NCBI GenBank assembly: GCA_001724245.1
Contig: MEDX01000027.1
Coordinates: 1-41,435, forward strand
Length of the DNA stretch: 41,435 nucleotides
Direction: 5' to 3'
Source: Fonticula-like sp. SCN 57-25
Lineage: Eukaryota
Both the position numbers and the translations under genes were made by a program. The number at the start of each line of letters is the position of its first letter. Positions within the stretch are counted from its first letter, which is position 1. The notes beneath the pieces were generated by a model, which was not told the DNA's origin, ran no database searches, and worked only from the letters and a program-made list of their open reading frames with translations. Positions 492 through 40,189 of this stretch are shown piece after piece.

Positions 492-2540
492 ATGAAGAGC
501 GTGAGCGTGGCGCTTGTCGCCTGCCTGGCGCTCATGGCCCCGCTGGCAGCGCATGCGTGGCGCGCCGGCTCGGGTTCTCGCACCATTCTCCCGCTGTACA
601 ACGGCACGACGGACTACCTCCGTGTCATCCCGGACACTGATTATGACGATCCGGGAGCCTTCATTGAGCGCTGGGATGCTGGCCGCATCAGCGTTGGCAA
701 CGGCGACATTCAGTCGCACTGGGTCCGCGACGACCTTCGCACTCAGTCGCTCGCCATTGAGGGCGACGACGGCGTGATCCTCGTCTTCTCCTCTACCGAA
801 GTCTACATGCTTTTTGCCCCTGATCTTGTCGAGTACATGGATCGCGTCCGCGCGGCCGTCGGCGACGACATGTATGCGCGCCTCCGTTTCCTTGGCCACG
901 GTCAGCACAACCATGAGGGCCCCGACACGTCAGGCCTTGGTGGACCGGTGAACCGCGAGTACATCGAGTACCTCTTTGACCAGATGGCCGCTGCCACGCT
1001 GGACGCCCTGGATTCGCTCGAGGATGTGACTGTACGCCCCCACCCCATTGTGTGCCGAAAACGGCTAACGAGTCACTGCTTTTAGCTCCAATTCGGCGAG
1101 GTTCCTCACAACTTTGGTCTTGGCGACGGCCGCGACCCGCGCGTATACGACAATCTTGTGCACATCATGCGCGCCATCCCGCTGGCTGGCGGCGCGCCCG
1201 TGGCCACGCTTGTGCAGTGGGGCATGCACCCGGAGATCACGATGAGCTGGGCGCCCAAGACGCCGTATGAAGACTGCGAGGTGCTCGGTGTTCCCGCTGA
1301 AGAGTGCACCGCCAAGGGCCAGTTCCTCACGGGCGACTACCCTGGCATCCTCCGTCGCGTCCTCAGCGGTACGCACTGCTCTTCGGCGTGAGCGATTCCA
1401 CTTACGCTATGCGTAGATCTTGACGGCTCCCGCGAGGTCATCTACTACAACGGCGCGATTGGTAGCCAGATTGGCCCGCGCGGCCCCGTTTGGGAGATCA
1501 CCGAGGAGCACCCGCTCGGCGACGGCACGACGCTCCCGGAGGGCGCCGTCTCTCTTGGCCGCTCCTTCCGCAAGGCGTTCCTCGTCGGCGAGCAGCTCGC
1601 CATTGCCGTTGCCAACGCCGAGACGCCGTATACCGTCCCCGAAGGCTCCATTGAGTACTCTAGCGCCAAGTCCTACTCGCGCATGACCAACCCGCTCTTC
1701 AAGATTGGTACGGTTCATTGCAAACGTATTTTGTTTCTTGCTGACTAACGATTGCCTTTCTGCTTAGGTCTTTGCCCTCAGAGCGTGCTTCCGCGCGGCG
1801 ACCCCACGATCCCCGCGGTGCTTGGCTACAACCTGCGCGACCTGTACATCTGCTCGGAGCCGGCCAATGACGCCAACTGCGTCTTTGACAACTACGAGTT
1901 TGATATGAACCCGCTGCCGATGCGCAAGGGCAACTTTGCGCGCATTGAGGTACACCTGGCGCGCCTCGGCCCGCTTCGTTTCGTCACGATTCCCGGCGAG
2001 ATGTCGCCCGAGCTGTCCATCGGCGTGCCGCTTGATTTCGACACGCCCGAGGGTACCGCCAAGTACTATGTGAACCCCGACGTCCACCCGACCGGCGAGG
2101 ACTATTACTTCCCGGGCACCATCAGCGCCATGCTCAACTGCACTACGGCCGAGCCGTGCTTTGTGCTCGGCCTTACTGGCGACGAGATGGGCTACATCCT
2201 CCCCATCAGCGACTGGCATCTCACCTGCCTCGCGAACGCCACCGACTGCCTCGCCGACCACGAGGCCGGCGCCATGGACTACTTTGACTCGATGGCCGGC
2301 GCCACCTGCGAGCGCATCATTGTCGACATTGAGGCGGCCCGCCAAGAGTACACCGAGCTGTACGGCGAGGAGACGGCCACCCGCGTCATCAGCGCCTGCA
2401 CGTGGGGCCAGGTCACCTACGACACCTCGGAGCACTACGAGGAGACCAACAGCGGCGGGTGGAATGGTGTCGACGACTATTTCAGGGGCCTCAGCGAGCT
2501 CCTCGGCGTCGAGCCGCACGGTCGCTACCAGCTCGAGTAA
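492..2540 (+). CDS. Secreted neutral/alkaline ceramidase-like metallohydrolase, 4 exons (introns 1032-1085, 1369-1416, 1708-1767)
   Basis: Signal peptide MKSVSVALVACLALMAPLAAHA. Motifs HNHEGPD, GMHPE, GDYPG, YYNGAIG, TIPGE, LGLTGDEMGYI and HYEETNS. GT-AG introns join the frames cleanly; strong C/G third-position codon bias. Confidence 0.7.
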
Positions 2541-2805: not shown

Positions 2806-4457
2806 CTACTTCTTGTTCAGTCTCCGCTGGCGAGCTATCACACACAGGTCAGATCAAATGACAAAAGGTCCATGCCTTCGTACCGAGGTCCTTGTTGCGG
2901 AAAATGAACTTGTCTGCCAAATTGCGGGTGCTTGTATCCTTGAACGTCATGCCAAACTTTTGGATCATCTTGTTATCCTCGAGAGCCTTGACCAGCTGCT
3001 TCTCGGCGCGCTGCGAGCTGGACACGCGCTGGTTCGTCAGGCGCATCTCCTGGATTACATCGTTGACCGCGATCATGGCCGCCATCGCCTCGAGTCCGTT
3101 CGGGCCGATGCTGCATCACCTCGCGTTAGACCGGCAGGTAGCAAGCCACAAACGTACTAGTTGCTCTCCACGTTCACGTTGTTAATGCTCTTGTTCGCCT
3201 TGAGTCCCTCGGCAATGGCGATGGCGCCGGCCTCCTTGAGGTTGCAGTTTGCAAGGAAAAGCTCAACGACCATGGTGTTGCGCGCGAGGGCCTTGCCCAG
3301 GCGAACCTGCAGCTGCTCGTCAAAGAACCTAGCAAAAAGTATCCTCTCGTCAGCATCGCAGCGTAGGTTATATTCAAGATGTGCGCACTCGTTGTTGTTA
3401 AAGTTGACCTGCCGACAGGCCATGCTGTCCTGCTCGACAAACTCGATGACGCGGAGCAGCTCCTGCTTGAACTCCTCCTTGCTCTCCTCGGTGGGCGCCT
3501 CATACGAGATGACGGCGTCGTTGCCCTTGACGGCCGCCGGAGCAGTGCCCTTAATCACCTCCGTCGTCGTGTCCGCAATGTTAAGCTCGATACCGAGGTC
3601 CTCGGCAAGCTGCGCCAGCTCTTCAGGCGACATGTTCGCGGCCAGGGCGTCCAGCTCGGGGTCACCCGTGCGCGGCACTGCACGCGCAGGCGGCGGCGTC
3701 ACGGAACGCGGCTTCTCAGCCTCCTTCACCTCGGGAGCAGCAACAACGGCAGGCGCGGCCTCGACAACCTCGACCGCAGCGGGCGCGGCAACAACAGGGG
3801 ACGCAACAGGCTCGGCCTCAGTAGTCGGCGACACGACGGCCTCAGCGGGCACAACAGGGGAAGCGGCCGGCTCAGAGGAAGCCACGGCGGCGGGGACCTC
3901 CTTAACCTCGGCAGCAGCGGCGAGCACGGGCGACGCATTGCGGGACGCCTTCTTGGGAGCAGGCGCGCCGCCGCCAAGCTCGGGAATGTCCTGAACCGGC
4001 GCCGACATGTCCGTTCCCTTGATGGCCTCCTCAACGGCGGCCTCGGTAAGCTGCTCGGGGGCGCTGATGTACACCATGGCGTGCATGAACGGGAGGATCT
4101 CCGAGATGGTGTGCTTGTGCGACGACGCCTTGGCCTTCTTGAGAGAGGGCGCAGAGTCGGACACATTCACAACAAGCACGTACACCTCCTCACCTGCGCG
4201 GGCCTGAATGTAGCCGTACGTCACATTCTAGCAAATAACGGGTCAGCTACACAATAGCGGCAGATGCAGCGAGGAAGGCACACCTCCTTGCCGAGCAAGT
4301 CGCGCGCGCCATCGATGCCGCCCGCGCCCGAGCCCAGCACCGTCAGCTTGTTGCGGGAGTCGCCATAACCAAGAACAAACCAGTTCTCGTTGTTCTCGTG
4401 GTGGCGAATGCGCAGGTACGCCGCCTTGATGGACGGATCAGAAGTGTCCAGAGTCAT
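2806..4457 (-). CDS. ADF-H (coactosin/drebrin-like) domain fused to a tropomodulin-like C-terminal half, 5 exons
   Basis: N-terminus ...AAYLRIRHHENNENWFVLGYG..KLTVLGSGAGGIDG..VTYGYIQ..KKAKASSHK is ADF-H-like. An Ala/Pro/Val/Glu-rich linker follows, then DPELDALAANMSPEELAQLAEDLGI and an LRR (NVNVESN, EMRLTNQ, KFGMTF, RNKDLARQRR) typical of tropomodulin. Confidence 0.85.
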
Positions 4458-4788: not shown

Positions 4789-7700
4789 TTACACGTCAAT
4801 ATCCATATTGTTGTCGTGCCTTGCTCGGAGGGGGACCGGTTTGGCCAGGCGTACGGTAGCGAGCCCTGGGAGCTTCTCCTTTATCCCGGCGATGGCGGCC
4901 TCGGTTACATTGGTAATATCCAAACCAAGAGTTTCGAGAGAGCGAAACGAAGCCAGACAAGGAATGTCATCATCGGTGAGGGCTGTTCGACTAAGGTTCA
5001 ATACCTTGAGTGTCCTCACGACGCCCAACGAGGCGAGCGCCTGCAGCGCTTTCCCGGTGATGTTTGTTTCGGCGAGCGACAACGACCAAAGGTTATTAAG
5101 CGCGCTCAGCGCAGCCACTCCTTCATCAGAAACGCGCGTGCGCTCCAGGTGCAGCTCCTCCAGGTGCAAAAGATGACGTGAAATCGAGACGAGCGATTTG
5201 TCGGTGATGTGCGAACCCGTCAGGACAAGCGTGCGCAGCGATGCGGGGGTGCCGCCGGGCGATGAGCAAATGGCAGCGACGCCGGCGTCCGTAAGGCCGG
5301 GAAAGCTGGAGAGCTCCAGAGACACAAGGGATAGCCGCGAACCTAGCAAAGTGAGAGTTAACAAACAGTCTGTTTCGGCCACAACACACCTTGCCCCATG
5401 ATAAAGGTTAGCAGCGCGTCGATGTCAAGCTCGCGGCTGGGAAAGGTCAATGTATGCAGCGATCCACATTCTGCAGGATGTGAGAAAAAGTCTGAAATTG
5501 AAACAGTGCGCACCGCGAAGCGGCAGTAAATCCTCGACCTCGAGGCCTGTGCCGTCCAAAAAGAGCTCCAGGAGAGTCGGGAGTGCCGCGACGCACTCAA
5601 AATGCCGCCCGTCGACTAGGCAGTTTCGAATGGAAAGGCGGCGCAGCTCCTTGAAGCCACCTCTGAACGACAATAGATCTTTCAAGTTGGTCTGTTCCAT
5701 GATCAGTGTCTGCAGACTCGGCAAGGCTGGCTCTGGCGTCAATAAAAAGAACCAAAAGTAGTGGACGTACGCGCGAGCGCCAAAAGGACCTTTCTCGTAA
5801 TCCCCGGGCACTGGCTGATATCAAGCGTCTCCAACTTGTGCAAATGCTCGACAAGCACAGCAATGCCTGCGTCGGTCACCCTTGTTCCCGCCAGCTTCAC
5901 CTCTCGCAGCTCGCGCAGCCCTAGCGACCCCGCAATGTAAGCCCGCCGCCAGAAAAGGCCGCAATAGCGCACCTGCCAAGTGCTTTACGCCCTCGTTGGT
6001 GACTGTGCAGTACGACAAATCGAGCCGCATGAGTCGCGCCGCGCGCGCAAGGGTTGCCACACCGGCGTCCGTCACGTACGACGACGACCGGACCGAGAGG
6101 TCCAATAGCGCGCGACACTCGGCCGCTGCAGCGACGAGTTCATTGGTAGCGCCCGCGTAGCCATCGAGGCTCACGCGAGGCACGCCACCGCCGCTGCCGC
6201 GACCCAACAGCAAGAGGTTACTGCGGTCGAGGCGGTTGGAGGCGCGCAGGTTCTGGACCACAGCCACTGCAGTTGAGCCATGAAGCTGCCTAAGTGAAAT
6301 CTTGCGCGACAACTGCGGATCGCACAACAAATCTGCAAGGGAAAGCATGAGCGACCGATACAAACCTGAAAATACAGAGATGTACCGCACAGCCGACCTA
6401 TGCACAGCATCTGCAGCGACCGGATTTTGCCTCGCACGGGCGTTGGGCGTTGAATTGCCACCGGCGCGGGCGCTGCTACCGCGCTGGTGGCAGCGCGCTG
6501 TGCAATCACGTCGGCCTACATCACAGTAAGCAGCAGGAACAAAACGTAAATATATGAAACGCACTCGAAGCCTCCTTGTTGCCGCGTCGACTTGAGCAAC
6601 TGGCTCGTTCACTCCTTGCAATTCGGTTGCCTGCGGCCCTGCGGTGCTGCCCAATGTCTGACCGACGCCCCACTGCCGCACGCGCCTCGCCGGCCTCCCT
6701 ATTCCCCTCCCAAATTGGTCCACGATGTTGTGTGGTTGGTCGGCGGGCGCAATATTTGTGCGTTGCCGGTGTGGCACCGCCGGCCCGTGGTCATCCTCGT
6801 CTGTGTCGTCAGAATCACTCGCCGACGCGTCCATATCCACATCGTCGTCTTCTTCTTCTTCCTCCTCCTCCTCTTGCTGTTCTTCTTCAGATAAAGGACG
6901 GCGTCGAGAAAAAGGACCAGAATGGCTTGTGCTAATTTCCTCGTTCTCTGTGCGATCGATGGGTGCCGCAACAGGTTCGGCCGCAACGACCGGTCGCACA
7001 ACGACCAGGGACGCGTTCGGCACGAGCCCTGCGTCGGCCAAGCTCATCTCGCCGTCGTCAAACTTGTGCGGTGGAAACTGCCTGAAAAGCGCCGCACCCT
7101 CTACTGCAATGTGCTCACCCGGGTGCGCCTTGCGGATTGCCTCGAGCACGTCGGCGATGCGTGCGCTCGCATCAAAGGTCGCACGAAATTCGCTGCCGCT
7201 CGGCAGGCGCACTTTGAGCGCCGCCGTCGGGCTCCCCGACGCGGCCATCGCGGGTGTAGCACCCGCTGCCACAGCTTCGACATTGTCCTTGCTGGATGGC
7301 GCGCGGGGAGGCGCACAGGCAAGGCGGCGCTGCTTGTCTGCCTCGATTTCGAGCCGGACAAGCTCCGCGGCGCGACGGTCGTCCGCGCGCTTGCTCTTGG
7401 CAATGCTCGTCGCTTCGTCCACAATGCGCTGGTGCTCGCGTTCAAGCTGCTTTTCACGGTCGGTGAAGCGCGCAAAGCGACTCCGCACCGCTTCGTCAAC
7501 AGGATGCTCGGCCGACGACGGTGCTGGAGGCGGCTCGAGCGGCGTGTCCCAGTTGATAGTGATCGGCGTCTGTTTGGAAGGACTTGGCACTTCGGGTGGT
7601 GATGCGGACAAACGAGGCCCACCGCGCGCGCCGAGCTGAAGAGTCGCGGGAGCAGCAGCAGCGGCATCGAATCGGCCGCCGACCGAAGACGCGGCAAGGA

Positions 7701-7873
7701 TGCTGTCACCATCGCCCCTGTTAACCGGCCGAAGCAAAAAACCAAGAAGCGATTCCGTACGTTGCAACAAGGCGGCTGATGTCGGCTTCAGGCTCTTGTG
7801 CAATGGCTTGTGCCGCCGTCTGTACGTCAAAGCCCATGGCAGCGAGCTGCGCTATACGATCGTCGTCCGCCAT
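4789..7873 (-). CDS. UBA-UBX-LRR (AMN1/FBXL-type repeats) multidomain protein, multi-exon
   Basis: Starts MADDDRIAQLAAMGFD (UBA MGF loop). A coiled coil (IEADKQRR) precedes a UBX domain (LKVRLPSG..F..QFPP..SLADAGLVPNASLVV). An acidic tract and many LxxLxLxxTxVTDxG repeats follow. All junctions checked are GT-AG. Confidence 0.8.
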
Positions 7874-14042: not shown

Positions 14043-17000
14043 ATGCAGGCCGATGATGGGGCGGACGACGGGGACCTGACGGTGCGTAAAAAGCATTTGC
14101 TTGATATATTGTGTGTCTTATGGGGACGTTTGCTTGAGTAGACGTTTCGCTCTTTCTTTGATGAAGGCGATGAAGTGCTTGAGCGGGCATCCCTCGTCGC
14201 CAGCAACAACGACATGGGCGATGTCGAGTGGATTGCCCGCATCCTTGACGGGTACCAGGAGCAGCCCCAATTATTAGACACGCACCTGCCTCGCCTGATG
14301 GCCATTGTTGTGGACGCTATTCGACTAAAGCGCGAAGCTCCTGCTGCTGTTGAATCTCTTCGTGCCGTGTTCCGCCTCGCCTATGTCATCGTCAAGGTCC
14401 GAGGCGCCAAGGCAGTAGGTACGAGGTCGCCATTGCCAAACCACTTTACGCTCAAAGCGTTTTAAAAGGTAAATATTGGGGACATGAAGTATCCGACGTT
14501 CTTCCTACGCTGTCCTTTCTCATGTCCATAGACCCGCTTGTGCCGTCGCTGTGGGAAGCGCGCTACGTTTTGCTTCTATGGCTCTCGACACTGTTGCTGA
14601 TCCCGTTCAGTCTGAGTACAATCGATGGGAGCGGCGCTCAGCAGAACCAGCAAGCAAACTCCTTAAAAGAGGTTTTTCTTCCAACTGACCCCTCCTTTGC
14701 CTCGGCGGCGCACGACGTGTCTATTGTGACGCGCGTGCTCGCTGTCGCCAACTTTTTCCTGCCATACCAAGGAAGAGAACGGGAAGGCGCCGCCATGTGC
14801 ATTGCGCGGTTGCTCTCGCGCCGCGATGTGCTTGGCGTGGACAGCGGCGCCTTTGTCGAGGATTTTGTGGGGCAAGTAAATGACGCGCTGGGCGGCCAGA
14901 GCGCCGCAGCAGCCGGTACCCCAGCCTCCACCAACGGCAACGTCGTTGGCCTCCTGATGGCCCTCTGCGCCCTGCTCAAGGTCATGCGAAGGTCCGACGT
15001 CAGCCCGGCCCTCCAAGAGCAGCTTTATATGTGCCACGTTGCTGCGCGACGGGCTGCGAGCTCGTCGAGCAGCACCATGCTGACCAAAATGGCAGTCAAG
15101 CTGACGCAGCGCCTAGGCGTGGCCCTGCTTGTGCCCAAGGTTGCCAAGTGGAGGTACAAGCGCGGTGGACGCTTTGTAAACGGCGCCGATTCGGCCTCAT
15201 CCGGCGCCGCGGAAGAGCGGGGTGACGAGGCAGTAGAGGTTGCCGACGTGGATCACTACGAGCAGATTGAAGAGTTTATTGACACTCTGCTCGACGCGCT
15301 GAATCACCGTGTACGCATATCGTATGTTTTGTTGTTTGTACTGCTTACGAATATTGCGTACGTTGCAGGACACTGTTGTGCGGTGGTCCGCCGCCAAGGG
15401 CCTCGGCCGCATCTGCGAGCGCCTCCCCTTTGCCCTATCGGATGACGTCATCGGTGCTGTGCTTCGCCTCTTCCAGTCGTCGCGCTCCGACCCCGCTTCT
15501 TGGCACGGCCTTTGCCTGTCGCTGGCCGAGTTGAGCCGGCGCGGCATTCTTCTTCCCCGCCGGCTTGCCCCCTTCATCCCGCTCGTGCGACGCGCGCTCT
15601 ACTTTGAGTCGCGCGTGGGTGTGGGTGGTGCGTCGCTCGCCATCGTCGTCCGCGACGCGGCGTGCTACGTGTGCTGGGCGCTTGCCCGCGCGTATCACCC
15701 CGACGTGCTGGCGACTCACGTTACGACGTTGGCCGTCTCGCTCTCCACCGTGTCCGTATTTGACCGAGAGGTGAACGTGCGGCGAGCAGCGAGCGCCGCC
15801 TATCAGGAGCTCGTTGGGCGCATGCGGGGCGCAGTGCCTCACGGCATTGACGTCATCCGTGTGGCAGACTACTTTGCCGTTGGTGGGCGGGCGCGCTCGT
15901 TCGTGCAGGTGGCGCCCGCTGTTGCCAGCATCGGAGGCGAGCGCTACCGTGAGAGCATGGTCGCGCACCTCGTGGAACAAAAGGCGATCCATTGGGACCG
16001 GCAGATTCGAATTCTTGCGGCAAAGGCAATGCAGCAGCTCGTAGCAGACGACGTCGAGCTCGGGATATCCGTGATCGACTCTCTCGTACGACAGCCCTTT
16101 TCCACATTGTACCATTTTCATGTTGTTCACATTGCCCGCTTTCGTTTCGTAGTATGGCTCGTGCTTTTCAACGGATCCTGCCCATGTTCATGGCTCCCTG
16201 ATGGCGCTCGGTGCCGTGATAGCGGCCGTCTCTGCGGGCGGCCGCCCAGTGCCATCGCTTCATCAAGGGCGCGCCCTGGCCCGCCTGCCGATTGAGGTGA
16301 TCTCGACGTTGGGCAAGGCGGTTGCATCGTCGGATGTCGTAGGCGAAGCGCTGGCGGCGTTCATTGGAAATTTGGCCGACGCGCGCGTCCGCCTCGACAG
16401 CCCCGACAGCGAGGCGCTGGAGGACCAGCTCATAACACTCCTAAAGAAGGAGACGGACTTTACGAGAGAAGCCGCCCGCGATGCCGTCGGACGATGGCTG
16501 CTGGCGAAGGCGAGCGAGGCCGCCGATGATGAGCAGGCGCGCCAGCGGCTTCTCGGCAGCATTGCCGGCCGCTACATTGAACTGGTGGACAGCAACGTGA
16601 AGGGGAGAGGTGCGCTGGCAGAGCTCCCGCTCGTCCTCGCGGTCATGCCGGCCGCAGTATTGGCGCAGGAAGGAGAACGCGTCGTCAGCTGCCTGGTTGA
16701 CTGTCTTCAAGTACAGGTGCGCCGCTACGCTTGACGTTTGTTCCGCTTTCTAACTGCTTCTTTAAAGCATCTTGCTGAGCGCGTCCGTGCCGCCCTCACT
16801 GCCCTTATCCGCCTCTTTGTTTTGCTTCCCGGTGCCCTTTTTGCGCCCGCCCTTCCTTTAGTCCTGCAGACGTTTGGCAACTATACAACCGACGAGCGCG
16901 GCGATGTCGGCTCGCTGTGCCGCGAAGAGGCGATGGACTTTATTACGCGCGCCCCGCGAAGCGTTCTCGACGCCCTCATGCAGGCGGCAGTACAAGGCGG

Positions 17001-17985
17001 ACAAGAGCCTGGCGATTCGCCGACGGATGGTGTGAGCGTTGAGGGACTCGTCCTTCAGCAGATGCTTGAGAGGATAGATCGCACGCGCGTGGCCGCCTGC
17101 GTTGCCATGCGTCGAATCCTTTTCGATCAAGTGGACGACGACGCGCAGCCCGGGATTACGTGGCCTGCCGGCGCGGCGCCGGGCGGGTTGGATAGCGAGC
17201 TGCTGCGCTCAGTGTTCTCTGCCGAATCGCTCGCGCCATCGTTTCTTGATTTGGGCGATTTGTTTACGCGTGCCACTGCTCTGCTTGCCCGGGAAGGCGC
17301 TGGGTTCTCGACGTCCCTGCTGCTTGGCCTCTCAGCGAGCGCCGGCGGTGGCGCGGCGGAAGCGATCATGACCGCCGCCCGCACCGCGCTTCTCATGCGG
17401 CTCTTGACGCTTGACGCGAGCCAGAGGTGGTCGATTGCGTCGCGCTGGGCGGCCCTTTTGAGCAAGTACGCGCACCACGAGCGCCTCGCGTCGGCCCTCG
17501 TAGGCACGCTCCGGTTGCTTGTCGAGTCGGCATCGCTCGGCGGGGGCGGCGACGGTGGCGAGGTCGCAATGCTCGCAGTCGTGCGAGCGGTCAGAAAGGC
17601 GATTGCGACGTCGGGCGACATGAAAAAGATTGCTGAGGGTGTATACGTGCTTGCCTGGGCCATTGAGTGGAGTGAGGATGCGGGCGGTGAGAACATCGAC
17701 AGCAGCGCGGGCACTGTCACTGCGGCGAGTGTGAAGCGCAGTGCGTTTGGGCAGCTTGCCGTCACGCTCTGCAGCAAATTTCCGCGGGCGCGGACAATAA
17801 CGGCGTCGGCGCTTTATACGGCCGCACTGGGGAGGCAAGTGCTCCGGAAGGGAAAGACGATAGACTTGCTGATTGACACGGACTGGACGGGCGCTTTGAA
17901 GGATGTCAAGCCGAGGCGAGATCTGCTGTGCGACATGTACGGAGAACCGCGGCCGACCCCGATTAAACCCGCCGCACAGGCTTAA
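14043..17985 (+). CDS. TBCD: Tubulin-specific chaperone D, multi-exon
   Basis: YQEQPQLLD, WEARYVLLLWLS, DTVVRWSAAKGLGRI, VRDAACYVCWALAR, FDREVNVRRAASAAYQELVGR and YTTDERGDVGS. Confidence 0.96.
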
Positions 17986-18047: not shown

Positions 18048-18983
18048 TTACAATAGCCAGGACGCGAGGACCGGCGTTAGAATCGCCGTGGAAAGGCTGG
18101 ACAAGAAATTGACACCGTTGTTGCTCAGAATGTCCCTTCCGCTGATGCGGTGGCTGCCCACGCTAAAATGCGACGTGATCAGCTTCCTGTCCGAGTCGTA
18201 GTACGTCGCCTGCAGGACGGCTCCAAGCAGCGAGTCAATGAGTGAGCCGGCCAGTCCAGCTGCACCGGCAGCGAGCACGACCCAGGCCTGGTGGCGCGGG
18301 CACCCGAGATGTGTGGCGAGCAGCCCGACATTGCGCTGCGGGAACGCCAAAAGAGGCGACGCGGCGGTCGAGAACATGACGCCATCAAAAAAGTAGCGGC
18401 TAAGCACAAAGCAGATGCCCACCACGAGACCGCCCGTGAGACTCGCCATGAGCCCGGTGAAGGAGACGCCGCCGTTGGTGCCTGGCGGTACCGGGCGTAG
18501 CGTTGTGATGAGGCGCGGTGTGCCGCCGGCAACAGAGCCGATCTCGCTCGCCCACGTGTCGCCTGCGCAGCACGCGTAGAAACCAACAAAGGCGATAAGA
18601 AGCATGTCCGCCGTGCTCCCGTCAAAGCTCACGCACTGAGCTGGGGCGCTAATGGACGACGAAACCAGCAGATGAGACACCGCGAGAAGCGTCCCAAGGC
18701 CACCATTGCACAATACTTGAAACACATTGCGCTGGCCTCCGACCTTGTACTCCTCTTCCTGCCGGCGCTTCACAGAGGCTTGGTACTTTGTGAGGCGCGA
18801 CGATGAGAGGTAAAACACGAGCAGTGTCGCAGCAAACGAGTAGCCGCTCGCAAACGTCAGCACGCCCAAAACAAACGCCGCCACTCCGCCGTACGGCGTA
18901 AGGCTATGAGAATGCTTCACGCCGCGAAGGGAGATCGCTGCGCTAAAGATAGTGCCCAGCAACGCGCGAACCCACACCGACAT
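18048..18983 (-). CDS. TMEM19: TMEM19 / DUF92 membrane protein
   Basis: SSSRLTK, GGQRNVFQVLCNGG, AGDTWASEIG, VPPGTNGGVS, GSLIDSLLGAVLQ and ILSNNGVNFLS; a single long ORF. Confidence 0.93.
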   Translation of the reverse strand: MSVWVRALLGTIFSAAISLRGVKHSHSLTPYGGVAAFVLGVLTFASGYSFAATLLVFYLSSSRLTKYQASVKRRQEEEYKVGGQRNVFQVLCNGGLGTLLAVSHLLVSSSISAPAQCVSFDGSTADMLLIAFVGFYACCAGDTWASEIGSVAGGTPRLITTLRPVPPGTNGGVSFTGLMASLTGGLVVGICFVLSRYFFDGVMFSTAASPLLAFPQRNVGLLATHLGCPRHQAWVVLAAGAAGLAGSLIDSLLGAVLQATYYDSDRKLITSHFSVGSHRISGRDILSNNGVNFLSSLSTAILTPVLASWLL

Positions 18984-19293
18984 ATGGGGCGCCCTGAGAG
19001 TCGAGACGGAGTCGAGAAAAGTGACAAAAATCTCAAGTGCAAAACCGACCGAGACCGACTATATGCATAAGGATGTCGCCGAGAACCGCGCCTCTGGCTG
19101 CCAGCTAAAGCGCGGATCCTTGTTGCCTCCTTCGTCTGTAAACTGGGCGACTGCGCGGCGGCTGGCCGATACTGCGCTGGAGCAACATTGAGCTTCGGAG
19201 TGTTTCCAATTTTTGGCGGGAAATTTCAGGGGCGGTGGTAGGATTGCAATGTGCAATTTGGACGACAAACAAACTTGTGATCGTCGGTGAGCG

Positions 19294-29851: not shown

Positions 29852-30554
29852 ATGGACAAGATCAAGGAGAAGATGAACCAGCTCCGCCTGGAGGCGGATC
29901 GCAACCTCGACCGCGCTCAGGAGGCTGAGGAGAAGTCCAAGGTCATGGAGGAGAAGGTCCGCAGCTCGGAGAACGAGATGCAGAGCCTCCGCAACAAGAT
30001 CAAGCTCCTTGAGCAGGTGCGTTGACCAACCTATGATCGCTGTTTTTCTTTTCGAATTATTGTGAATCCGATACTGCTATGAGTTGTTATGCATTTGTGT
30101 ATATGCCTGTGCCTCGTTTCTCCTGTATCCTCTAGACTCGTATGCTTTGGCTGACTCGTATATCTTTTTGTAGGAGCTTGACCGTGCCGAGGACCGCATT
30201 GCCGACTCCAAGGCCCAGGCCGCCCGCAGCGACAGCGCTGGTACGTTTCGCATTTTTTCCCATGTGGGCCGTGTCCGGCGTGCCTAATACCATCGTTTAG
30301 GCCGCGACTCTGAGGCTCTTCTGCGCAAGATCGCCCTCCTCGAGAAGGACCTCGACATTGCCGAGGAGGCCCTCAAGGAGAAGACCGATCTCTACCGCGC
30401 TGCTGAGCTCAAGGCCGAGACCTTCGAGCGCAAGTCGCGCATCCTCGAGCAGGAGCGTGACGACCTCGAGCAGGAGCTTGAGGAGAAGCTTGCCGAGCTC
30501 AAGAAGGCCAAGGCTGACCTCGAGGAGACTCTTTCGAACCTCGACAGCATCTAA
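29852..30554 (+). CDS. TPM: Tropomyosin, short 161-aa fungal type (exons 29852-30016, 30174-30240, 30301-30554)
   Basis: MDKIKEKMNQLRLEAD N-terminus and a continuous heptad coiled coil. Exons sum to 486 nt, i.e. 161 aa plus stop. A probable 5'UTR intron lies at 29685-29832. Confidence 0.95.
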
Positions 30555-31385: not shown

Positions 31386-31464
31386 GTTTGTATGGCCGAG
31401 TGGTTAAGGCGCTGGAGTTAGGATCCAGTGTGAAAGCGCCCGGGTTCGATCCCCGGTACCCTCA
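31386..31464 (+). tRNA. tRNA-Leu(TAG) with a mismatched acceptor stem (edited tRNA, tRNA-like element or pseudogene)
   Basis: D arm GCCGAGTGGTTAAGGC; anticodon arm CTGGA-GTTAGGA-TCCAG (TAG at 31419-31421); variable arm with a GAAA loop; T arm CCGGG-TTCGATC-CCCGG; discriminator A; T-run at 31472-31477. Acceptor strands GTTTGTA/TACCCTC mispair at positions 2-4. Confidence 0.8.
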
Positions 31465-31669: not shown

Positions 31670-33587
31670 TCAAATCATCATTGGCTCCTCTCGCCTCCGC
31701 CTACTGCTGCTGGCCATCCCAGGCTCGTCGTCATTGGCGTCCTCCCCCGCTGCGGGCTTCTTGCCCTTCTTCTTCTTCTTCTTGGCGCGGTTGACGTCAT
31801 AGGTTGGAGCCGGTGGCAGCGAGGTCGACTGCAACAGGTTGGTGGTCGACGTCGGCACTGCGCCGTCGTCGAGCATGTCGCTCAGCGAGCGCACAATGCT
31901 GTCCTCGTAGGTGACCGTATCAATATCAGGAACGATATTTGAAGGCGTCTCCGGCACAGCCTCGGTCGCAACAGCGGCGCTCTTCTTCTTCTTCTTCTTC
32001 TTGGCCGCGCCTGCATCACTGCCCTCGGTCGCCTCCTGGAACGCGCGAGCAGCAGCGCGCGCCTTTCTCCTCTCCCGCCGCAGGCGCCGCTCCTCGGCGG
32101 ACTCGCGCTGCCTCGCCGCACTCGTGAGCGGGTCCTCGGAGCTCGCCGGGCCTGCACTGATATCCAACTCGTCCTGCGACATTTCCGACTCTGTGCCATA
32201 GTCGAGCTCCTCCTCGTCCGCCGCACGCGGGACCGTGTCATTGAGCGGAGCAACCTCGACGTGGCTGTCCAGAGGCGCATCAACTTGGCCAAAGGTCGCG
32301 ATGGGGAAGTCAAAGGCGGGCCGCGGGACCGGTGCGCCCGTTGAGCGGTACACGAGCGACGCGTTGACCATCTCGGTTCCACCTTGGGGCGCGGCAACCA
32401 CGGGGACCACCTGCTCGGCCACCTCGTCCGTCACTGGCGGGCTGTGGGACACAATCTGCTCCATCGTGAGGTCGCGCTCGGGCTCCTCGCCAATGCGGAT
32501 CTGGAGCAGCGCGTGGAAAGGCTGCCGGCAAATGGGGCACCTGTTGCTCTGGAAGCGGAGCTGCTCGGCGCACTGGCTGCACAGGCACATGTGGCGGCAC
32601 GGGAGGACCACCGTGTCCTTGGTGTCCGACATGCAAACAACGCACTCGCGCATGTTTTCCTCCGCGTCGTCCGACAGCGAGCCGCCGCCCTCCAGCACCT
32701 GGTCAATGCCATAAATCTCCTGCAGCACGTACGAAACGCCATCCACCATAATCTTTTGCTTCAGGACACGGATGCTCCATGACCCGTCCGACTGCGGAAC
32801 AAGTGTCGCAAAGGTCGACTGCGACTGGACGCGGATCGGAGTCAGGGACGCCAAGCTCTCGTCAAACACTGGCAAACGAAAGACTGGTCAGCGCAAAGCG
32901 AAAGAAAGCGCGGGTGCCCGTACCGGGATGCGCCTCGACGAGGATCACGACGGGGAAAATGCCGAGGACGTGGCGCTCGTCGTCCACATTCAGGTCCGCC
33001 GCGGAAAAGGCCGACGTGTCCAGCAGCCTGCTATCGTCCAGGGAAAACGACTGGCCAAGCTTGGCCGGGAACTCGGACCCCAGCTGGCACAACGACTCGT
33101 AGCGCGAAACGTACTTTGCATTCAGATCCGCGTCAACCATCTCGGAGGCGCAATAATAAATATTGACGGTGCACGGCGCCTCGGCATCCAGCTTGAAGCT
33201 GAGGCGGTACTTGCTCGACTCGCCAACGCGCTCCATCCGCACGCTGCTCCGCTTCACGTTGACGTAGCTCTTGATCGTCGTCGTGCGCTGATACTCGGAG
33301 GTAGGCTGCAAATTCTACAAACGCATTAAAATGGTTAGACGTATGTTATGCCCATTCGCTTCCTGTGTGCGCACCATGCGAGCGAGACCGAGATGCCCCA
33401 GGGGTACAGCGCTGCCTTCAAACAAGACGTCGGCTTCCAAATTCAAGCGCTGCCCGTTCGGCGAAATGGGCGGACCAAAGTAGAGGCTCTGGCGGCGTGA
33501 AGGGTTCTGGGCATCGTCTCCCCCGCCCCACGCCATCTCAACCTCTCCTTCCTCCTCGCCCGCCTCGCGCGACGACGACTGACCCAT
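31670..33587 (-). CDS. MGRN1/RNF157/LOG2-type RING E3 ligase, 3 exons
   Basis: N-myristoylation-type start MGQSSS; TTTIKSYVNVKRSS; VLKQKIMVDGVSYVLQEIYGI; RING CVVCMSDTKDTVVLPCRHMCLCSQCAEQLRFQSNRCPICR. Confidence 0.93.
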
Positions 33588-36459: not shown

Positions 36460-38191
36460 TTACAGGTTGGACTTGAGCGGCTCCACGAGCAGCTTGTCCT
36501 TTAATTTTTGGATTGTATCTTTGGAGACGCCCGCCTGCGAGAGGTAGTTTTCGACGCTGCCCCACTTCTTCTCAAATGCCTGCATTGTGAGGAGCATGCT
36601 CTCTGCCCTTGCGGACATGAGACTGACGGCCTGGTCGTCGCTGAGCTTACCCTGGAGCCCGGCGATGCGCGCGAGCGTCCCGGGCGTCCTATCGGCGAGC
36701 CTCTCCGTCTGCTCATAATCCCACGCAATAACGTCCTTGTCGACACCAAAGAGGGAGAGGAGCAGCATTGAGAGGATCCCGGTGCGGTCCTTGCCCGCCG
36801 TGCAGTGGAACACGACGCCCGCCGGCGAGTCGGCGATGAGTGTGAGCGCGCGGCCAAACGCGGCCATCCCGGTCTGCATCATGTACATGTACGCCTCGAC
36901 AAAACCCGGCACGCCGCTGGCGTAGAGCGAGAAGCGGCGCTCGAGGGCGGCGGGCGAGTAGTCCTCCTCGCCAAAAATGGGGCATGCAATATGTTCGACG
37001 CGCGCGATGGCCGGCGACGCGCGGATGCCGCGCTCCCTGTCCGACCGCAGGTCGAGCACCCATTGGACGCCGAGGTCGTGGAGCACCTGGTGGTCGTTCT
37101 CGTGCAGCTCGCTCAGCTCGGCGGACCGGAACAGCACGCCGGGCCGCGTCACGCATCCGCCGCGGGCCGGGTACCCGCCAAGGTCACGAAAGTTCTGCAC
37201 ACCTTCCAGCGTCACCAGGCGCGAGCGGGGAATGACTGCAAACGCACGGTCAAGCGCGGCGCGGCGTTGGGGAGCTTCAAGCCACGTCGTGATCACCGAC
37301 ACAACCTCCTCATCTAAAGGGCAGCATGTTGAGCATGCGGTACGCGCGGCAAAGGAGGGAAAGAAAATGCAAACAGGACGTACGGCGGCCTTTAAAGTAG
37401 TGATCCGTGTCGCGCATGAGGACGAGCGAGTGGTTCTGGATGGTGTTGGCAAAGAGGGACGAGTCCTCGACGGGGACCACCGCATCGTTCAGGCCGTGAA
37501 CAGTAAGCACAGCGGTGCTCGGCGGGATGTTTTGCGCTGGCGAGCACGTCAGACACACACTCACACTAACCAAAATGAAGAGACGCACTGATGGTCATGT
37601 CGAGAGAGCTAAAGCCGTCAAAGTCCTCCTTGGTCACGCGCAGCGATGCCGGCTGGCCGCGCGAAAGGTACTTCCAATCAAACCACCCATGCTCCGATAG
37701 GTGCCGGCGCTCTTCCTCCGTGTGCTTATTGAGAATTCGCGACATGTCAAACCGGCCCGCGAGGTTCACCGCAAAGAGAAGGTTGCCGTGCAGAGCAGTG
37801 TACCGCATGGCGCCAGTGCCGCCGCGAGAGTGGCCAATCACGCCCACGACCTGATAGCCGCGGCTCTCGAGCCACGCAGCAACAGACACCGTGTCTTCCG
37901 TGTCTTCCGTATAGCCGCAGTACTTGACAACGCCCGCGCTATCGCCATGCCCGCGAAGGTCAAAGCGGAACGACGAGAACGGGAGGCGAGCCGCAAGAAG
38001 CGGGAAAAACATCGAGTCGCGGTGGCCTTCAAAAGGGCAGTGAGCAAAAGAGACAACAAGCAATACACAACAAGGGACGAACAGAGGATTCCATGCAGAA
38101 GGATAACAACGCGCTTGGGCTCGCTCGGGTTCACCCGAAGCGTCCCGGCGATGCGGCCAGCGCCGCCGTCAATGTACTCGGTGGTCTCCAT
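36460..38191 (-). CDS. Alpha/beta hydrolase fused to a PtpB/Y_phosphatase3-type Cys phosphatase, 4 exons
   Basis: HG oxyanion motif, GHSRGG nucleophile elbow, VHGLNDAVVP and DHYF, joined in frame after splicing to VQNFRDLGG..FRSAEL..DLRS..HCTAGKDRTG; ends PLKSNL. Confidence 0.88.
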
Positions 38192-38415
38192 TCACTGGAG
38201 GGGCATCTAAATCTGACTCGCAAATCGAGAATGAAATCAACGAAGGGAGCCACGAAACCAAAGACGTAGGGGATGCAAAAAAAGATGCAGACAAGGATGA
38301 GTGGATAAATATGCAACAACGAGGGTTACTGGGTGTGTCTTTAGTGTGTGCAGCCCCTGCAGAGCCCTTGCAAGCAGTCTTCTTCTACCTCCACGAACAA
38401 AAAAAAGAACAAAAA

Positions 38416-38487
38416 AGGAGCCGGGCGGAATTGAACCACCGACCCTTCGATCTGCAGTCGAAAGCTCTACCACTGAGCTACAGCTCC
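38416..38487 (-). tRNA. tRNA-Cys(GCA)
   Basis: GGAGCTG/CGGCTCC acceptor stem, D arm GCTCAGTGGTAGAGC, anticodon arm TTCGA-CTGCAGA-TCGAA, T loop TTCAATT, U73 discriminator, immediately followed by T-runs (Pol III terminator). Confidence 0.97.
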
Positions 38488-38595
38488 TGAAACAGAAGTC
38501 AAATTATTTGTCTTAAGAATCTACCGTATGGTTTGTTTACTTGAAGCGTCGGCTTCAGACGCACCTTGCATCAGGCCATTTCTCCTTGCAAGGGC

Positions 38596-40189
38596 ATGCA
38601 AGTGTGCGCGCGCAGCGGGACCGGGGAATCAATTCAGAAAGAGCGGTTGCTAACGCAGCCTAACAGGTCTGTTGCGGCCCCTGGTAAGGTGCTGCTTACC
38701 GGCGGGTATTTGATAACGGAGCGCGGTTATGGCGGCGTGGTTCTTGTGACTGACGCGCTCTTTGTGACGGTACGTGGCCGCATCGGCAGAGACCGGGTTC
38801 ATGTTGAATCGTCGCGCTGACGGCAAGCGCGCAGACGGCATCGCAGTCGTCGGAGCGTCGACCGTACTCGGTGAGTGTTTCGTCGCCGCAGTTTGGCTGG
38901 TCGGCAGAGTACCGCGTATCCGTCGAGGACAATGTGCTGCATCTTGATCAGGTCGATCAAGCGGCGCTCGCGAACCGCTATGTCCAGATCGCCGCCTTGA
39001 GCGCCCTCTCGTACGCCTACAAGGAGAGCCGGTCGCTCTTTGATGCCGCTCTTGCTGCCGGCATCAGCGTAGTCATCCTCGGCGACAACGACTTTTACTC
39101 GCAGCGGCATGCGGTAAGTTCAGTTCCTTTGGCGTATCCGTCTAACACGCTTTTTGCGCGTAGCTTCCGCCCGGCACCCGCCCATCGGCCGAAGCGCTCT
39201 CGCGTCTGCCTGCCTACAACCGCCTCCCGACTGACGCGCTGAGCAATCTGCGCAAGACGGGTCTTGGCAGCTCTGCGGCGCTGGTTACGTCCGTGGTTGC
39301 GGCCCTTCTCCACTACGTCGATCCGTCGACGCCGCTGTCGCAGCAGCGCGAAAAGATTCACAATGTGGCGCAGCTCGCGCACTGTCAGGCGCAGGGGCGC
39401 GTCGGAAGCGGGTTTGACGTATCGAGCGCCGTGTATGGCAGCCAGCGCTACGAGCGCTTTTCTGCGTCGGCGATTTCAGAGCTGCTAGCGCAAGGGACGC
39501 CTGCTCGCTCGCCGCCGCTGTCAGCACTCTATGACGCGCTGCGTCCCGGGGGAGCAAACAGCGCCTGGGATGGGTCCGTGGCGCCCATTTCGCTACCGCC
39601 GGGGCTCTGTCTTGTGCTCGGCGACATTGACGCCGGCAGCAATACGCCCTCGCTCGTCGGCGCCGTCAGCAGGTGGCGAGCCAGCGACCCGGTTGTGGCA
39701 GCCGCGCTGTGGACTGAGCTAGCCGCTGCCAACGAGCGCGTCGAGATGCTGCTCCGCCACCTCGCCACGCTCTCAAGCAACGTGTCATACTCTTCCACTC
39801 TAGAGCGCCTCGCAAAGGCGCCGGCTGCCGAATGGGTCGGCGACGAGCCCGTTTCGCGCGCCCTCACGGACCTCGCGCAGGCTTTTCTTTGCGTGCGCTC
39901 GCTGCTGCGTGACATGGGCAGCGCGGCGGGGGTGCCCATCGAGCCGCCCGAGCAGACCGCCCTTCTGGACCGCTGTATGGCACTGCCCGGGGTTGTGCTG
40001 TGCGGCGTGCCGGGCGCCGGCGGGTACGACGCCATCTGCTGCCTCGTCCTCGGCGAGGGGGCCCGGAAGGCCGTTCTCGACAGCTGGCGGAACGCACCAG
40101 AGGGGGAGACCAACGTCTGCCCGCTCCTCACCACCGCCGGAGGCAGCGGCATTCGCGTCGTAGACACACCCGTAGAGGCCAAGTTTTGA
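38596..40189 (+). CDS. ERG8: Phosphomevalonate kinase, GHMP (Erg8) type, 4 exons including an 8-nt first coding exon
   Basis: APGKVLLTGGYLI, GDNDFYSQ, KTGLGSSAAL, AHCQAQGRVGSGFDVSSAVYGS, GSNTPSLV, IEPPEQT and GVPGAGGYDAI. ATGCAAGT|GTGCGC..CTAACAG|G gives MQVSVAAPGK. Confidence 0.95.

Follow-up and report, generated by a model that had tools for sequence, protein, structure and literature searches.

On the minus strand of the window (the whole stretch analysed here, 41,435 nucleotides of contig MEDX01000027.1), positions 2806-4457 hold a five-exon gene whose spliced translation gives a product of 479 residues. From its N-terminus, this product joins an ADF-H domain, a long linker, a helix resembling tropomyosin-binding site 2 (TMBS2) of the tropomodulins (Tmods) and a leucine-rich repeat (LRR) domain like that of Tmods and leiomodins (Lmods). 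An initial annotation, made from the letters of the DNA alone, had proposed such a single spliced gene, and the limits that it gave coincide exactly with the start codon (from 4457) and the end of the stop codon (2806). The 25-residue segment that it quoted from about 3589-3663 was also found to be exact (residues 247-271), and the C-terminal motif RNKDLARQRR is real and spans intron 4. From the reading frames and alignments described below, we consider it very probable that this is one real gene with the fused architecture.

Gene structure and relatives of the fusion

The exons, introns and parts of the gene are listed in Table 1. When the spliced protein was placed in a multiple alignment, all four junctions were gapless versus the ortholog P0050, and those of introns 2-4 were gapless versus animal Tmods as well. 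The GC content of the introns is 0.45-0.57, versus a GC content at third codon positions of 0.81-0.85 in the domain-coding exons. A single exon runs from the second half of the ADF-H domain through the linker and the TMBS2-like helix into the LRR, so that the fusion is independent of any splice. Left unspliced, intron 2 gives an apparent continuous open reading frame (ORF) at 3157-4227, and a prokaryote-style gene call (P0001) reads through it. We consider intron 2 to be spliced since only the spliced form aligns gaplessly with P0050 and the Tmods. Its retention as the main form was rejected, as the first repeat would then carry 20 extra residues that are found in none of the relatives. An isoform retaining intron 2 would have these 20 residues added within the first leucine-rich repeat.

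Table 1. Positions of the parts of the fused gene and of two further genes in the window
Feature	Position	Strand	Description
Exon 1	4284-4457	-	start ATG 4455-4457; residues 1-58, N-terminal half of ADF-H
Intron 1	4228-4283	-	56 nt, GT..AG; removal needed for frame; junction aligns with P0050
Exon 2	3389-4227	-	C-terminal half of ADF-H, linker, TMBS2-like helix and LRR start
Exon 2, first part	4006-4227	-	residues 59-132, C-terminal half of ADF-H
Exon 2, middle	3664-4005	-	Ala/Pro/Val/Glu-rich linker, ~115 residues, predicted disordered
TMBS2-like helix (in exon 2)	3589-3663	-	residues 247-271
Exon 2, end	3389-3588	-	pre-LRR stretch co-linear with N-terminal part of Tmod ABS2, with capping helix and first LRR beta-strand
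Intron 2	3329-3388	-	60 nt, GT..AG, in frame, stop-free; same intron position in L009
Exon 3	3158-3328	-	LRR repeats 1-2
Intron 3	3111-3157	-	47 nt, GTACGT..CAG; open frame of relatives' fragments and of L009 stops at same point
Exon 4	2884-3110	-	LRR repeats 3-5 and beginning of C-terminal helix
Intron 4	2835-2883	-	49 nt, GTACGA..TAG; junction gapless versus Tmods
Exon 5	2806-2834	-	basic end of C-terminal helix; stop TAG 2806-2808
Tropomyosin gene	29852-30554	+	exons 29852-30016, 30174-30240 and 30301-30554; 161 residues; ~25 kb from the fused gene
ERG8-type (GHMP-fold) phosphomevalonate kinase	39164-40189	+	TIGR01219, 259 bits on main exon, profile 149-450

In an exhaustive representative search of 1.84 billion proteins, 544 matches were obtained at E ≤ 1e-3, and the best 150 of the 544 were examined. 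Among these 150, P0050 was the only single-stretch near-full-length match; multi-repeat LRR proteins fill most of them, and further fusions may rank below. P0050 has 560 residues, encoded by one ORF, with its parts arranged as in the window protein; its C-terminal half is identical to that of the window protein at 103 of 223 positions. Its cluster has five members, whose contigs measure 1.85-1.94 kb and exceed the ORF by only about 200 nt, with members found on 1, 5, 2 and 1 contigs. We take these contigs to be transcripts since they are mRNA-sized, whereas the genes of the window and of L009 have introns.

L009 (3-1472, plus strand), on a contig with a GC content of 0.66, represents a third species. 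Here, a 248-codon Ala/Pro-rich frame that is open at its 5′ end runs into a TMBS2-like motif, the pre-LRR stretch and an LRR exon. The LRR exon is identical to the protein fragment P0037, and the two introns lie at the positions of window introns 2 and 3; the contig stops short of where the ADF-H domain would be expected. Including P0037, seven exon-sized fragments at 44-65% identity represent further relatives (the others being P0030, P0042, P0044, P0067, P0072 and P0087). With P0050, the fused architecture is conserved in at least one other species.

Searching with the C-terminal half of P0050 gave 11 proteins: the combination of PF00241 and PF27087 was found in P0050 only, six were Tmods with PF03250 and PF27087, and four were generic LRR proteins. 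As this search needs shared 5-mers and missed even the Lmods, its counts are no measure of rarity. Word-index protein searches with pieces of the window matched only the window's own ORF, P0001. A profile scan of metagenomes gave 19 loci, including a canonical Tmod (L001), a C-terminal Tmod-like fragment (L002) and the fusion relative L009. The other 16 are matches to the LRR core only, mostly with many overlapping repeats, and an ADF-H match was found in none of the 19. L001 (71-1216, plus strand) lies on a 2-kb metagenome or metatranscriptome contig with a GC content of 0.44 and encodes a full canonical tropomodulin, with TMBS1-, ABS1- and TMBS2-like regions and the LRR (ABS, actin-binding site).

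Parts of the protein, a candidate partner and the source organism

The C-terminal half is almost certainly homologous to ABS2 of the Tmods and Lmods. The piece corresponding to exon 4 gave 16 matches at E ≤ 10 among PDB sequences, the top 10 being all Tmod or Lmod (E 6.3e-5 to 4.4e-3) and the other six having E ≥ 0.26. With the piece ending with exon 3, Lmod2 came first (two sequences, 3.2e-5 and 3.6e-5), followed by Lmod1 (1.1e-3), and 9 of 31 matches were Tmod or Lmod. P0050 gave 47 PDB matches at E ≤ 0.01 with phmmer, and again the top 10 were all Tmod or Lmod (3.5e-25 to 1.8e-11). The first LRR protein of another kind was LRRC34 (1.5e-10), and CARMIL (LRRC16A) reached 1.2e-3 versus 3.5e-25 for Lmod1. 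Aligned with full-length Tmod1, P0050 is matched from Tmod1 residue 103-114 onwards, which corresponds to TMBS2.

We also built a canonical-Tmod profile from five sequences (P0157, P0159, P0162, P0164 and the L001 ORF) and compared it with a set consisting mostly of the best LRR matches to the window protein among the 1.84 billion proteins, together with the spliced window protein and L002. Two Tmod1 sequences ranked first, followed by the P0050 cluster (123 bits) and the window protein (116.6 bits). The latter was matched in one stretch, with profile positions 116-347 of 364 covering residues 247-476. L002 scored 96 bits, and the best generic LRR protein 62 bits, in the repeat core only.

In the AlphaFold model of P0050, the predicted local confidence (pLDDT) exceeds 90 between about residues 385 and 560, where five strands with intervening helices are followed by a long helix at the end. 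In a Foldseek search with this model, ranks 1-12 were all Tmod or Lmod (E 1e-13 to 1e-10), and the ABS2-only structures among them had a target TM-score of 0.82-0.93 and a root-mean-square deviation of 1.2-1.8 Å. The next match was DRC5 (3e-7) and CARMIL had rank 46; ribonuclease inhibitor, NLRs, LRRC34, DRC5 and CARMIL all ranked behind every Tmod or Lmod chain. The initial annotation had raised the question of whether the repeats group with RNI-like or CARMIL/NLRC3 proteins instead; Tmod and Lmod chains came first both by sequence and by fold. The precomputed label on the window ORF, PF27087 (LRR_TMOD-LMOD, Pfam 38.1), is not diagnostic alone, because LRRC74B and bacterial LRR clusters carry it too.

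Upstream of the repeats, a 27-mer around residues 247-271 aligns without gaps to Tmod2 114-140 with 13 of 27 positions identical (BLASTP E 0.002), and its BLOSUM62 score was reached by none of 100000 shuffles. In the multiple alignment the helix is in register with the Tmods, and the distance from it to the first LRR strand, about 60 residues, is similar to that in Tmods, with alignment gaps between. The pre-LRR stretch is co-linear with the capping element of Tmod ABS2, and a short shared motif is kept at its start. These alignments indicate that the Tmod-specific TMBS2 helix is present as a putative tropomyosin site. Compared with Tmod1-4 of animals, the protein thus has a co-linear series of TMBS2, pre-LRR stretch, five-repeat LRR cap (ABS2) and basic C-terminal helix, and over the span from TMBS2 to the C-terminus it is identical to Tmod2-type proteins at 70 of 220 and 72 of 217 positions. 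It differs from them in that TMBS1 and ABS1 are replaced by an ADF-H domain at the N-terminus and a linker of about 115 residues, and in that it comes from a genome that looks non-animal.

The Pfam Tropomodulin family (PF03250), which covers the N-terminal TMBS1/ABS1 region, had no match at E ≤ 1 on the window pieces, none on P0001 and none at E ≤ 0.01 on P0050, and the canonical-Tmod profile aligns with the window protein only from position 116 of 364. TMBS1 and ABS1 therefore appear to be absent, with the ADF-H domain and a spacer in their place, as had been proposed for the tropomyosin- and actin-binding sites of the Tmod N-terminus. The spacer is rich in Ala, Pro, Val and Glu in the window and is an EP repeat in P0050, with no sequence conserved between the two, and it has a pLDDT below 50 in the P0050 model. 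In the window, the GC content at the three codon positions of the linker is 0.83/0.61/0.69, versus about 0.6/0.35/0.84 in the domain-coding parts.

At the N-terminus, Cofilin_ADF (PF00241) matches exon 1 (model 1-42 of 125, 15 bits) and the start of exon 2 (model 72-124, 16 bits). The two halves were scored separately and each lies below the Pfam threshold of 22.4 bits because intron 1 splits the domain. The uninterrupted domain of P0050, identical to that of the window at 43 of 127 positions, is above the threshold (35.3 bits, E 1.1e-8, model 2-123 of 125). Of the two family searches that had been suggested as a check, the one for Cofilin_ADF was thus positive with P0050 and the one for Tropomodulin negative.

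The domain had been described as coactosin-like; an ADF-H domain was found, and the coactosin part did not hold. The drebrin-like protein 1x67 matched the whole ADF-H domain of P0050 (E 7.2e-4) and was the best PDB match of window exon 1 (E 0.0024). Drebrin (5y1z) matched both window halves in register, with E 0.89 for exon 1 and 0.77 for the start of exon 2 (residues 66-133), where it was the sole PDB match. These two were the only ADF-H chains in the PDB sequence searches. A coactosin chain was not found at E ≤ 10 with the P0050 domain, window exon 1 or the start of exon 2, and the coactosin subtype was therefore rejected. Given the drebrin-type matches, the domain is better named drebrin/Abp1-like, and by these matches it appears nearest to the drebrin/Abp1 type. 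Drebrin, drebrin-like protein (mAbp1) and Abp1 resemble the window protein in having an N-terminal ADF-H domain followed by a long disordered region. In these proteins the ADF-H domain is followed by helical or charged regions, Pro-rich stretches and, in Abp1, SH3 domains, and we know of no drebrin/Abp1 protein with a Tmod-type LRR. Coactosin, too, has a single ADF-H domain, one that binds F-actin, but is a stand-alone domain, whereas the window ADF-H is fused.

The short fungal-type tropomyosin that the initial annotation had placed 25 kb away was recovered on the plus strand. Its N- and C-terminal exons match the two ends of the Pfam Tropomyosin model, positions 1-55 with 44.6 bits and 179-241 with 39.6 bits (threshold 38.6). 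Among PDB sequences, the tropomyosins 8puz and 9ff9 of 161/162 residues (E 5e-11) were the only ones to match it at E ≤ 0.01. By its length and matches, it appears to be a short fungal-type tropomyosin and a candidate partner of the fused protein.

Tropomyosin is an opisthokont protein. For the phosphomevalonate step, fungi and plants use ERG8, whereas animals have an unrelated enzyme. Introns in the window are about 50 nt long, the GC content is about 58% and genes are densely packed. Taken together, the ERG8-type kinase, the 161-residue tropomyosin and these genome features point to a fungus-like, non-animal opisthokont as the source, in line with the earlier placement of the gene outside animals.

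Proposed function and alternatives

As described in the available text of PMC4571291, Tmods alternate TMBS1, ABS1, TMBS2 and ABS2; ABS1 sits on the first subunit of the pointed end and is critical for capping, and ABS2 binds the interface of the first three subunits. The same text describes Lmods as lacking ABS1 and TMBS2, with an ABS2 that recruits at least two subunits and so makes them nucleators. By analogy with these proteins, we lean slightly towards the window protein being a bipartite actin-filament regulator of the Tmod/Lmod family, in which the ADF-H domain would replace the disordered TMBS1-ABS1 region, and which would act as a pointed-end cap or stabiliser. Like ABS2 of Tmods, the LRR cap would dock on the last actin subunits at their pointed-end face, while the TMBS2-like helix would contact the 161-residue tropomyosin at its N-terminus. 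A second actin contact, in place of ABS1, could come from the ADF-H domain on its long linker, via the filament side near the end. The outcome would be a cap or stabiliser of the pointed ends of tropomyosin-decorated filaments. Of these steps, binding to pointed ends as such is marginally probable, and binding together with tropomyosin can be put forward only tentatively. It is likewise possible, though we would not count on it, that the Tmod fold, with a folded ADF-H domain replacing the TMBS1-ABS1 arm, serves as a working pointed-end regulator linked to tropomyosin in a lineage that is not animal and probably fungus-like.

Several observations weigh against this proposal. ABS1, which the available text of PMC4571291 calls critical for capping, is absent from the window protein and so is TMBS1, and the Pfam Tropomodulin model is silent on both the window piece (E ≤ 1) and P0050 (E ≤ 0.01). 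The likeness to TMBS2 is short (27 residues, pairwise E 0.002). The LRR of P0050 is slightly nearer to ABS2 of Lmods than to Tmod1 (92 versus 81 bits; 38% versus 33-34% identity), and Lmods, according to the same text, nucleate rather than cap. The ADF-H fold rests on sequence, as the domain in P0050 was modelled with a pLDDT of 31-50 in the full-length protein and a mean of 37 for the domain alone with a three-row alignment; the succession of helices and strands agrees with the fold but is no proof of it. Finally, the 25-kb closeness to the tropomyosin gene is no sign of partnership. A complex prediction with two tropomyosin exon-1 peptides and a 60-residue piece containing TMBS2 scored 0.01 (mark 0.34) and is evidence neither way.

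The same parts could also make a leiomodin-like nucleator, in which the LRR/ABS2 and the tethered ADF-H domain together gather at least two actin subunits, seed filaments and then stay at the pointed end or leak from it, as do ABS2 and the WH2 domain of leiomodin. We regard this as unlikely, and the class of the ADF-H domain is one reason, since domains of the drebrin/Abp1 class bind filaments and not monomers. The protein does resemble Lmod1-3 of vertebrates in its LRR/ABS2 fold, in the top sequence scores (Lmod1 ABS2 for P0050), in the loss of ABS1 and in having a second actin-binding module on a long low-complexity tether. With the LRR of P0050, scores are slightly higher for ABS2 of Lmod1 and Lmod2 than for Tmod1, and the best PDB match of window exon 3 is Lmod2. 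In the available text of PMC4571291, a nucleator is defined by multiple actin-binding sites, and loss of ABS1 with specialisation of ABS2 is what turns the common fold into one; the window protein has no ABS1. In that paper, 11 positions distinguish ABS2 of Lmods from ABS2 of Tmods. However, the extra module of Lmods is a C-terminal WH2 domain after a Pro-rich region and not an N-terminal ADF-H domain, and Lmods, as that text describes them, keep TMBS1 and have lost TMBS2, the reverse of the pattern seen here. Moreover, the pre-LRR stretch, which is described there as a capping element of Tmod ABS2, is co-linear in the window protein and carries the short shared motif.

It is improbable that two neighbouring genes, or an internal promoter, produce the ADF-H protein and a short Tmod-like protein separately, with a fortuitous frame through the linker. 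Long frames do arise by chance in GC-rich DNA, with two antisense frames, of 277 and 296 codons, overlapping this region, and the linker is atypical in codon-position GC and unconserved versus P0050. The antisense frames have no Pfam match, however, and the C-terminal half of ADF-H and the start of TMBS2/LRR share one frame in one exon with no stop between them, with internal Met codons only at the end of ADF-H and within the TMBS2-like helix. In P0050, both domains are in a single ORF of 560 codons on contigs only about 200 nt longer, and the 248-codon linker frame of L009 reaches the TMBS2-like motif. Even less probable, and largely refuted, is a generic RNI-like interaction module of the CARMIL, RanGAP or NLR type, which would leave actin binding to the ADF-H domain alone. 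The single-exon query did draw hundreds of RNI-type LRR proteins (the 544 at E ≤ 1e-3), and the PF27087 label is shared with LRRC74B and bacterial LRR clusters. Yet the high ranks of generic LRR proteins come from many repeats that each match one query repeat (5-25 stretches per protein); when single stretches were scored, Tmod and Lmod were ahead by about 15 orders of magnitude (P0050 versus PDB) and about 55 bits (Tmod profile). The homology also continues past the repeats, into the TMBS2-like helix, the pre-LRR stretch and the C-terminal helix, and the fold search placed Tmod and Lmod at ranks 1-12 and CARMIL at 46.

Tmods and Lmods are textbook pointed-end regulators, and their discussion centres almost entirely on the muscle and membrane skeleton of animals; to our knowledge Tmods are regarded as animal proteins. 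A literature search, which did not cover the key reviews, gave neither a paper describing a non-animal Tmod homolog nor one describing an ADF-H domain fused to a Tmod. Each of the two modules is familiar, and their combination is new as far as the literature was searched; its rarity is not established. If the proposed reading is true, the Tmod LRR cap and the tropomyosin-binding helix are older than animals or, at the least, occur outside them as well. The fold would then have been put to a third use, besides that of a cap in Tmod and of a nucleator/elongator in Lmod: a single chain that recognises the filament side through ADF-H and also binds the pointed end. A Tmod-type cap together with a fungal-type tropomyosin in a compact fungus-like genome would extend the partnership of tropomyosin and pointed end beyond animals, and would offer a simple test system with one short tropomyosin and one Tmod-like gene. 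The exchange of ABS1/TMBS1 for ADF-H would also be a natural experiment on an idea put forward in the available text of PMC4571291, according to which minor differences around a shared ABS2 fold determine whether a protein caps or nucleates.

Neighbouring genes

Directly upstream of the fused gene, 4789-5424 on the minus strand encodes an LRR protein of another type (LRR_6 and LRR_8, E 5e-13), unrelated to the Tmod-type cap. A 263-codon open frame at 1749-2540 (plus strand) ends just downstream of the fused gene; it has no Pfam or NCBIfam match, and the stretch also lies under a 260-codon mirror antisense frame, as is common in the GC-rich DNA here. Further genes encode a UBX protein (5821-7851, minus strand), tubulin-folding cofactor D over several open frames (14354-17985, plus strand; ARM_TBCD, ARM_TBCD_2nd and TFCD_C), a DUF92/TMEM19-like membrane protein (18048-19058, minus strand), a RING-finger protein (31670-32887, minus strand) and a Y_phosphatase3 protein (36460-37488, minus strand). 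A second tRNA match, of 79 nt at 31386-31464 (plus strand), was found by Rfam only, at 41 bits, and may contain an intron. For the tRNA-Cys (GCA) at 38415-38488 (minus strand), ARAGORN and Rfam agree.

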